A stretch of DNA of 11,553 nucleotides. Source: a virus. Its lineage: Duplodnaviria > Heunggongvirae > Uroviricota > Caudoviricetes. The notes below the pieces were generated by a model. That model worked only from the letters and a program-made list of their open reading frames with translations. It was not told where the DNA came from and made no database searches. Below, piece by piece: positions 1,439 to 5,610 of this stretch (position 1 is its first letter; each line of letters opens with the position of its first letter). The DNA is taken from the IMG/VR virus record IMGVR_UViG_2675903654_000008, positions 1 to 11,553 of that record, one strand, 5' to 3'. Position numbers and translations under genes: made by a program.

Positions 1439-2020
1439 ATGAACAACTCATGGTGGCAGGAACTAATGCATTTTTTCCTGCAAGGAATGACACTTAAACA
1501 GTTGATTCATATGCTAATCATCCTGATCATATTGATTATTGTTATGCCGGTAAGCGTAAAAGAATGGATAAACCTGCATAATCCAGAAATCCTTCCTCAT
1601 TATTGGATGTATTACATCCTGTTGTTCTGCGTTAGCTATGTGCTTAACGGTGTTGTTAATTCCGCTTATCACGCTGTGACTGAAAGAATTGAGGTATCCG
1701 CTGCTCAGAAGCGCAAATCTAAAGAAGAAAAATATGTGCAAGATTTGTTTGATTCGTTAACTCTTGGAGAAAGAGCGTATTTGGCATTCGCTGTAGCCGC
1801 GAATAACCAGCTAAAGACAGAAAAGGGAAGCCATGAAGCAATCTCATTGCTCGAAAAAGGGCTTCTTATTCGGATACCTTCTGCTACTGGATATCCTGAA
1901 ATCGACCGTTTTGTTATCCCTGAACGCTATAGAAATGAGTGCTACATTAGGTTTGCTGGGAAGAAAGACAGCCTTATGGATGAACTTATCGCTCAGGATA
2001 AGCATGGCAAAAACAAGTAA
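1439..2020 (+). CDS. sieB: superinfection exclusion protein B-like (SieB-like) membrane protein
   Basis: 193-aa ORF with an N-terminal transmembrane segment (LIHMLIILIILIIVMPV) and a second hydrophobic helix. Sits next to the N gene on the opposite strand, as sieB does in lambda/P22-type phages. Family assignment from memory. Confidence 0.55.
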   Translation: MNNSWWQELMHFFLQGMTLKQLIHMLIILIILIIVMPVSVKEWINLHNPEILPHYWMYYILLFCVSYVLNGVVNSAYHAVTERIEVSAAQKRKSKEEKYVQDLFDSLTLGERAYLAFAVAANNQLKTEKGSHEAISLLEKGLLIRIPSATGYPEIDRFVIPERYRNECYIRFAGKKDSLMDELIAQDKHGKNK

Positions 2021-2036
2021 TTAGCAAATGAATTTA

Positions 2037-2309
2037 TCATCTCGCCGTCAGTTGTTTTGATTTCCGGTAGCCTGCCGAGTAAATGGCTACGTTTGGCAGG
2101 CAAATACTTCCACTGCATTCTTCTGCCTTCTTGCAGCGAAGGCTTCCGAGTGATGCTGCTTTATCTGCTCTGACGCAACCAGAGAGCTTTAGCGCAATTT
2201 TTCGCGCCAGTCGCTGCTCTTGCATTGCCTGTTCACGTTGAGCCTGTCTGCGTGCTCTGCGGCGATTTCTGGCGTTATCGTCAGCCAGATATGTAATGAC
2301 TACTGTCAT
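2037..2309 (-). CDS. N: N-like transcription antitermination protein with an arginine-rich motif
   Basis: 90-aa ORF, first gene downstream of pL/nutL. Arginine-rich N-terminus (NARNRRRARRQAQREQA). SD GGAGGT before the ATG at 2309. Confidence 0.7.
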   Translation of the reverse strand: MTVVITYLADDNARNRRRARRQAQREQAMQEQRLARKIALKLSGCVRADKAASLGSLRCKKAEECSGSICLPNVAIYSAGYRKSKQLTAR

Positions 2310-3973: not shown

Positions 3974-4912
3974 ATGACAAATACAGCAAAAATACTCAAC
4001 TTCGGCAGAGGTAACTTTGCCGAACAGGAGCGTAATGTGGCAGATCTCGATGATGGTTACGCCAGACTATCAAATATGCTGATTGAGGCTTATTCAGGCG
4101 CAGATCTGACCAAGCGACAGTTTAAAGTGCTGCTTGCCATTCTGCGTAAAACCTATGGGTGGAATAAACCAATGGACAGAATCACCGATTCTCAACTTAG
4201 CGAGATTACAAAGTTACCTGTCAAACGGTGCAATGAAGCCAAGTTAGAACTCGTCAGAATGAATATTATCAAGCAGCAAGGCGGCATGTTTGGACCAAAT
4301 AAAAACATCCCAGAATGGTGCATCCCTCAAAACGAGGGAGGTTCCCCTAAAATGAGGGACATCCCTCAAAACGAGGGAAAATCCCCTAAAACGAGGGATA
4401 AAACATCCCTCAAATTAGGGGATTGCTATCCCTCAAAACAGGGGGACACAAAAGACACTATTACAAAAGAAAAAAGAAAAGATTATTCGTCAGAGAATTC
4501 TGGCGAATCCTCTGACCAGCCAGAAAACGATCTTTCTGTGGTTAAACCGGATGCTGCAATTCAGAGCGGCAGCAAGTGGGGAACAGCAGAAGACCTGACC
4601 GCCGCAGAGTGGATGTTTGACATGGTGAAGACCATCGCACCATCAGCCAGAAAACCGAATTTTGCAGGGTGGGCTAACGATATCCGCCTGATGCGTGAAC
4701 GTGACGGACGTAACCACCGCGACATGTGCGTGCTGTTCCGCTGGGCATGCCAGGACAACTTCTGGTCCGGTAACGTGCTAAGTCCGGCCAAACTCCGCGA
4801 CAAGTGGGCCCAACTCGAAATCAACCGTAACAAGCAACAGGCTGGCGTGACAGCTGGAAAACCAAAACTCGACCTGACAAACACTGACTGGATTTACGGG
4901 GTGGATTTATGA
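3974..4912 (+). CDS. O: replication initiator protein O (lambda-type)
   Basis: 312-aa ORF. N-terminus MTNTAKILNFGRGNFAEQERNVADLDDGYARLSNML matches lambda O. Contains the origin iterons in its linker region. Confidence 0.9.
   Translation: MTNTAKILNFGRGNFAEQERNVADLDDGYARLSNMLIEAYSGADLTKRQFKVLLAILRKTYGWNKPMDRITDSQLSEITKLPVKRCNEAKLELVRMNIIKQQGGMFGPNKNIPEWCIPQNEGGSPKMRDIPQNEGKSPKTRDKTSLKLGDCYPSKQGDTKDTITKEKRKDYSSENSGESSDQPENDLSVVKPDAAIQSGSKWGTAEDLTAAEWMFDMVKTIAPSARKPNFAGWANDIRLMRERDGRNHRDMCVLFRWACQDNFWSGNVLSPAKLRDKWAQLEINRNKQQAGVTAGKPKLDLTNTDWIYGVDL
4322..4446 (+). repeat. ori iterons: six ~18-bp O-binding repeats, followed by an AT-rich unwinding region (~4447-4490)
   Basis: ATCCCTCAAAACGAGGGA (4322-4339), TTCCCCTAAAATGAGGGA (4342-4359), ATCCCTCAAAACGAGGGA (4361-4378), ATCCCCTAAAACGAGGGA (4381-4398), ATCCCTCAAATTAGGGGA (4405-4422), ATCCCTCAAAACAGGGGGA (4428-4446). 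Confidence 0.85.
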
Positions 4913-5610
4913 AAAACATCGCCGCACAGATGGTTAACTTTGACCGTGAGCAGATGCGTCGGATCGCCAACAACATGCCGGAACAGTACGACGAAAAGCC
5001 GCAGGTACAACAGGTAGCGCAGATCATCAACGGTGTGTTCAGCCAGTTACTGGCAACTTTCCCGGCGAGTCTGGCTAACCGGGACCAGAACGAACTGAAT
5101 GAAATCCGCCGCCAGTGGGTTCTGGCTTTCCGGGAAAACGGGATCACCTCGATGGAACAGGTTAACGCAGGAATGCGCGTAGCCCGTCGGCAGAATCGAC
5201 CATTTCTTCCATCACCCGGGCAGTTTGTTGCATGGTGCCGGGAAGAAGCATCCGTTATCGCCGGACTGCCAAACGTCAGCGAGCTGGTTGATATGGTTTA
5301 CGAGTATTGCCGGAAGCGTGGCCTGTATCCGGATGCAGAGTCTTATCCGTGGAAATCAAACGCGCACTACTGGCTGGTTACCAACCTGTACCAGAACATG
5401 CGGGCCAATGCGCTGACTGACGCGGAATTACGGCGCAAGGCTGCCGATGAACTGACCTGTATGACAGCACGAATTAACCGTGGTGAGACGATACCTGAAC
5501 CAGTAAAACAACTTCCTGTCATGGGCGGCAGACCTCTAAATCGAGCACAGGCTCTGGCGAAGATCGCAGAAATTAAAGCTAAGTTCGGACTGAAAGGAGC
5601 AAGTGTATGA
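4909..5610 (+). CDS. P: replication protein P (DnaB helicase loader), lambda-type
   Basis: 233-aa ORF overlapping the O stop. Sequence matches lambda P as I recall it. Confidence 0.9.
   Translation: MKNIAAQMVNFDREQMRRIANNMPEQYDEKPQVQQVAQIINGVFSQLLATFPASLANRDQNELNEIRRQWVLAFRENGITSMEQVNAGMRVARRQNRPFLPSPGQFVAWCREEASVIAGLPNVSELVDMVYEYCRKRGLYPDAESYPWKSNAHYWLVTNLYQNMRANALTDAELRRKAADELTCMTARINRGETIPEPVKQLPVMGGRPLNRAQALAKIAEIKAKFGLKGASV

Follow-up and report, generated by a model that had tools for sequence, protein, structure and literature searches.

The O gene of the lambdoid phage sequence analysed here contains an array of iterons that is longer than the one in lambda, and the locus raises the question of whether this array is a new kind of replication origin and what its additional copies might do. 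The window, i.e., the whole stretch of 11,553 nt that was analysed, comes from an IMG/VR virus record of the Caudoviricetes. An earlier note on this DNA, made from the letters alone, had counted six O-binding iterons against four in lambda, had attributed about 39 bp to the two additional copies, and had set an O of 312 codons beside 299 codons for lambda. The note also supposed that the duplication lengthens the linker between the domains of O and could change origin strength or O-some geometry.

A repeat search of the window identified six 18-nt iterons on the plus strand between 4322 and 4445, with the dyad-symmetric consensus ATCCCYYAAAAYGAGGGA and start-to-start spacings of 20, 19, 20, 24 and 23 nt (Table 1). 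Iteron 1 has the same sequence as iteron 3. All six lie inside the O ORF (3974-4912), as the earlier note had stated, and the interval 4322-4490 which it named as the origin proved to consist of the iterons followed by the AT-rich tract at 4446-4488. That this tract would unwind is presumed from work on lambda, which PMC7466680 summarises. The repeats do lie in coding sequence, and one might regard them as a chance, low-complexity or coding repeat without origin function, but the probability of this is practically negligible. A degenerate iteron pattern with up to three mismatches matched only the six array sites in the 11.5-kb window, against 0.12 sites expected by chance, and the seven strand matches observed were reached in none of 200 shuffles. 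Four of the sites have almost the same sequence as the lambda iterons defined by experiment, the sites are annotated as O-binding in phage 933W, and binding of O in vitro has been reported for this sequence type (PMC7466680). The explanation by chance or coding repetition was rejected on these grounds.

The genes around the array are those of a lambda-type replication module. The Pfam family Phage_rep_O (PF04492) matched O at aa 22-115 with E=1e-34 and 119.4 bits against a cut-off of 28.7. The P gene overlaps the stop codon of O, lies directly downstream, and is named replication protein P in the records of relatives. The window carries what is expected of a lambda-type origin, namely iterons inside O, an AT-rich tract followed by a palindrome, an initiator of the Phage_rep_O family, P downstream, and the iteron specificity of lambda.

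Table 1. Features of the replication module in the window (positions are those of the whole stretch).
Feature	Position	Strand	Description and evidence
O gene, replication initiator, holds the origin	3974..4912	+	312 aa; ORF list and translation
39-nt in-frame block, absent from lambda	4322..4360	+	codons 117-129; IPQNEGGSPKMRD; alignment gap
Iteron 1	4322..4339	+	ATCCCTCAAAACGAGGGA; AT-distal extra pair; 'ori iteron 1' of AF125520; '1/1 double-prime' in PMC7466680
Iteron 2	4342..4359	+	TTCCCCTAAAATGAGGGA; extra copy; 'ori iteron 2' of AF125520; '1 prime' in PMC7466680
Iteron 3 (lambda iteron 1)	4361..4378	+	repeat search, lambda alignment, AF125520 annotation
Iteron 4 (lambda iteron 2)	4381..4398	+	repeat search, lambda alignment, AF125520 annotation
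Iteron 5 (lambda iteron 3 with the Stx-phage-type G>A)	4405..4422	+	ATTAGGGG
Iteron 6 (lambda iteron 4)	4428..4445	+	repeat search, lambda alignment, AF125520 annotation
AT-rich tract, presumed unwinding element	4446..4488	+	43 nt, 77% A+T, 60% A on the plus strand
28-nt palindrome flanking the AT-rich tract	4489..4516	+	GTCAGAGAATTC / GAATCCTCTGAC; inverted-repeat search
P gene, DnaB-helicase loader, partner of O	4909..5610	+	PF06992 Phage_lambda_P, E=1.9e-61, 207 bits

The lambda reference (NC_001416, O at 38686-39585) bore out the values that the earlier note had given for lambda. Lambda O has 900 nt with the stop codon and encodes 299 aa, and four iterons are annotated in it. Apart from one block of exactly 39 nt, or 13 codons, the O gene of the window is about 98% identical to that of lambda, and in both the DNA and the protein alignments this in-frame block is the only difference in length. 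The four AT-proximal iterons of the window differ from the lambda origin at a single base (three are identical and one is changed), the AT-rich tract, the palindrome and the spacing of 20/24/23 nt are identical, and a lambda-type P follows. Lambda differs in having four iterons, an O of 299 aa and no duplicated 39-nt unit. The one-base variant of lambda iteron 3 is known as 'iteron 3*' in PMC7466680.

The 39-nt block (4322-4360) is a diverged tandem copy of the adjoining segment 4361-4399 (IPQNEGKSPKTRD). TRF reported a period of 39, 2.0 copies and 89% matches, and the two units have five mismatches in codon register; the identity of iterons 1 and 3 leaves the exact edge of the block ambiguous. 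Of the extra iterons, the first matches lambda iteron 1 exactly, and the second has two mismatches to lambda iteron 2 and four to lambda iteron 1. It is nearer to iteron 2, and the pair of iterons 1 and 2 was therefore duplicated; judged by these mismatches, the published name '1 prime' for the second extra iteron is slightly misleading. Of the five mismatches between the units, four alter amino acids, giving K>G (AAA to GGT) and T>M (ACG to ATG). In the spacer codon that separates the duplicated iterons, none of the three bases agrees between the units (GGT, Gly, at 4340-4342 and AAA, Lys, at 4379-4381), and such a cluster of changes in one codon is unusual, the remainder of the block being 87-90% identical. 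Among the matches listed, four IMG/VR loci with six iterons have AGT (Ser) at this codon, a possible intermediate between GGT and AAA.

In the protein, the insertion occupies aa 117-129 and abuts the end of Phage_rep_O, so it lies between the N- and C-terminal parts of O, where the earlier note had placed it, in a putative linker. A single-sequence AlphaFold2 model of O was unusable (mean pLDDT 40.7, pTM 0.24), and its lack of secondary structure at about aa 103-204 carries no weight at that pLDDT. A PDB sequence search with O gave no match at E<=0.01.

As to whether this origin is new, the GenBank phage search gave a clear answer. The O gene of the window is 99.7% identical in nucleotide sequence, over its full length, to that of 933W and of many Stx1- and Stx2-converting phages. 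The 1999 GenBank record of 933W (AF125520) lists misc_binding features named 'ori iteron 1' through 'ori iteron 6', whose positions map exactly onto the six sites of the window, so that any novelty implied by the earlier note does not hold up. The two phages share six iterons at homologous positions, the 39-nt block and an O of 312 aa, and over the segment 4322-4380, 59 nt that are specific to the six-iteron form, they are 100% identical. The window also carries the linked G>A in the fifth iteron, which is found in 17 of 19 six-iteron arrays among the matches listed. With the 39-nt in-frame insertion upstream of the lambda-like four and the 312-aa O, it has the sequence features of the 933W/P27 type. 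Against 933W, O of the window differs at three bases, which give S113P (4310), T279A (4808) and one silent change. S113P precedes the first iteron by three codons, and T279A falls in the C-terminal part of O. No 100% match to this O allele was found in the phage or complete E. coli collections, the best being 99.8%.

We conclude with high confidence that the feature is the theta-replication origin of a lambdoid prophage, located inside its own initiator gene O and belonging to the six-iteron Stx-type allele of 933W, P27, VT1-Sakai and BP-4795. The P22/P32 Stx phages and Stx2 phage I have origins of the same kind. There is no evidence that contradicts the identification as a lambda-type origin with six iterons. 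This origin was already known, annotated and experimentally characterised, and the window adds no new biology, being a further instance of a common allele with two conservative amino-acid changes.

What the comparison does yield is an estimate of how frequent the allele is. The 59-nt segment, used as the marker of six iterons, is present at 100% identity in 72 GenBank phage records, nearly all of them Stx-converting, out of 167 that hold a lambda-type O. Among 5,426 complete E. coli genomes, 363 contain it, at 571 places in all. This second count uses the 59-mer only because a query with the lambda-type junction does not cleanly separate the four- and six-iteron alleles, six-iteron copies aligning to it ungapped with four mismatches. 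The earlier note had named, as the finding that would speak against it, a lineage in which six iterons are routine and O is no longer than usual; six iterons are indeed routine in this lineage, but they always come with the longer O that the note had predicted.

In IMG/VR, arrays were counted at 120 or more loci with the rightmost iteron and the beginning of the AT-rich tract as the anchor. About 117 arrays were countable among the listed IMG/VR matches together with the window, 933W and lambda, and these comprised 95 four-iteron arrays, 19 six-iteron arrays (17 of them IMG/VR loci, among the matches listed) and one five-iteron array. All six-iteron arrays that we saw have one 137-nt architecture and differ only by a few point variants, suggesting that they go back to one ancestral duplication. 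At one IMG/VR locus (L113, reverse strand, at about position 536) 23 nt of the iteron 3 unit are duplicated in tandem, giving five iterons and shifting the reading frame of O. The replicon is therefore probably dead, or the assembly is in error, and the frame shift illustrates why only in-frame changes such as the 39 nt persist.

The replication of an induced Stx prophage amplifies the dosage of the stx gene. The biology of the origin is therefore of medical relevance, and the six-iteron origin has accordingly been studied already (PMC7466680, and Nejman 2009/2011 as cited there). Kozlowska et al. (2020; PMC7466680) reported that the origins of Stx phages have six iterons as compared to four in lambda, that O gains 13 residues because the iterons lie in its gene, and that the first description of the six iterons is to be credited to Nejman et al. 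2009. Their iteron-binding assays in vitro and plasmid replication assays used the O proteins and origins of 933W and P27, which have the same six iterons as the window, and the effects on O-some geometry and origin behaviour that the earlier note had considered are the very subject of that work. Every O protein bound each isolated iteron. On the whole six-iteron origin, a strong DMS footprint was seen at the four AT-proximal iterons only, iteron 1' and the outermost iteron being weakly bound, and O of the Stx phages bound more weakly than lambda O. When iteron 1 and/or 1' was mutated with the O sequence kept, transformation by P27-derived plasmids fell from about 5e4 to <10 per microgram. The comparison of ori plasmids with four and six iterons that the earlier note had suggested has therefore largely been done with these P27 iteron mutants (PMC7466680). 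In the authors' proposal, the extra iterons would raise the local concentration of O or make the O-some more stable, and the 13 residues would serve as a spacer or 'space barrier' which loosens O-some packing; their secondary-structure prediction suggested that the extra residues do not contact DNA.

Based on the published work on lambda and on 933W and P27, O dimers would bind the iterons through the N-terminal domain to form the O-some, the AT-rich tract would unwind, and the C-terminal domain of O would recruit P-DnaB. The four AT-proximal iterons (4361-4445, spaced 20/24/23) would be the strongly bound core, and the two distal iterons (4322-4359) weak auxiliary sites that may make for a higher local concentration of O or a more stable O-some. 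It is proposed that the origin needs the distal iterons because the binding of Stx-type O is weaker than that of lambda O. The 13 extra residues would lengthen a putatively flexible segment of O and may loosen the packing of the O-some. Weak auxiliary sites are the reading of the two extra iterons that we favour, on evidence from one replicon (P27) and one assay (transformation). Lambda replicates with four iterons, and reportedly with three (Moore et al. 1981, as cited in PMC7466680), and such extra sites are therefore not generally required.

Two other explanations have to be weighed against this reading. The extra iterons may be a neutral by-product of an in-frame 39-nt slippage that a permissive part of O tolerated and that recombination then spread among Stx-type phages. 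The weak or missing footprints of the extra sites in vitro and the sufficiency of three or four iterons for lambda (PMC7466680) would agree with it, as would the single 137-nt architecture, which fits one event followed by descent or recombination and not repeated selection, and the out-of-frame duplication at L113 shows that slippage happens. Nevertheless we consider neutrality improbable: silent mutations in the extra iterons abolished transformation by the P27-derived plasmid (PMC7466680), the allele is frequent in complete E. coli genomes, and PhiR70_1, which belongs to a different class of iteron specificity, has independently gained an AT-distal copy.

Selection may on the other hand have acted mainly on the protein, in that the 13 residues lengthen the linker of O and alter O-some packing or the recruitment of P-DnaB, the DNA repeats being incidental. 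The insertion does follow directly on the DNA-binding domain, most of the differences between the two 39-nt units do change amino acids, and a 'space barrier' effect of the 13 residues has been proposed (PMC7466680). This account is also unlikely in our judgement, for iteron mutations that are neutral for the protein still killed the plasmid, so that the DNA sites matter in their own right, and the extra residues are predicted to make no contact with DNA (PMC7466680).

The gene order of the window, N, cI, cro, cII, O, P, ren, nin, is that of the standard early-right operon of a lambdoid prophage, and the best-matching E. coli prophage has the order N-cI-cro-cII-O-P-ren-nin. The window ends in the nin region, before Q and stx are reached. 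Among phage records, those of Stx1 phages come closest, with 68% of the window covered by the best match; the best E. coli prophage match, from a pig-faeces isolate, covers about 80%, so the window is mosaic relative to them. An Rfam scan of the whole window, in which oop and nut-type RNAs were sought, gave no match at the gathering thresholds.

Several neighbouring features were observed as well. A homologue of the superinfection-exclusion protein SieB (1439-2020, plus strand, 193 aa, PF14163, E=3e-24) adjoins N (2037-2309, minus strand). An ORF of 590 aa (8451-10223, minus strand) lies opposite to the nin genes, between ninE and the HNH endonuclease/ninG, within a low-GC island at about 8001-10800 (31-39% GC as compared to about 50% around it). 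It had no Pfam match and no PADLOC match, and its PGAP label in an almost identical E. coli prophage is 'hypothetical protein'. The ORF resembles a moron gained by horizontal transfer and may be a defence gene. A small ORF (10481-10732) upstream of the HNH gene contains a perfect TATTTC hexamer microsatellite at 10539-10597 (9.8 copies by TRF, nine whole units by exact count), which would be read as an (FL)n or (IS)n tract. Six related loci have 9, 10, 11 or 13 copies, so the repeat is polymorphic and always in frame.

Iteron-controlled plasmid origins, like those of R6K, pSC101, F and P1, are composed of multiple direct repeats, a replicon-encoded initiator and an adjacent AT-rich unwinding region. 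The plasmid iterons are located outside the initiator gene and also serve in copy-number control by handcuffing; we know of no handcuffing role shown for lambda-type iterons.

Closer to the window are the other O-type origins of lambdoid phages, of which five divergent ones were compared (P22 gene 18 and the O genes of HK97, vB_EcoP-720R6, PhiR70_1 and HK225). Each lies in the initiator gene just past a Phage_rep_O-like N-terminal domain and has dyad-symmetric iterons followed by an A-rich tract. Their N-terminal domains are 34-53% identical and their iterons differ in sequence, which means another initiator specificity than that of the window. [quoted passage not shown] P22 gene 18, HK97 and vB_EcoP-720R6 have four iterons at 20/24/23, exactly the spacing of lambda, HK225 has about four at a 21-nt spacing, and the PhiR70_1 type has five at 29/19/24/23 with the fifth copy on the AT-distal side. 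In the window, the last four iterons are spaced 20/24/23 and the extra pair is AT-distal. A core formed by the AT-proximal four, as this spacing suggests, agrees with the published footprint, and these five loci, which allow a descriptive comparison only, hint that iterons may be gained at the distal edge. AT-distal gain on a conserved 20/24/23 core might even be a recurrent route in lambdoid origins, taken independently by the 933W type (two copies more) and the PhiR70_1 type (one copy more); it could tune the dependence on host factors or on transcriptional activation, and the O with S113P and T279A might be a further step, although we regard this whole reading as unlikely. The small addition of the present comparison is that the spacing of the four-iteron core is kept in several divergent O-type origins and that extra copies sit on its AT-distal side.
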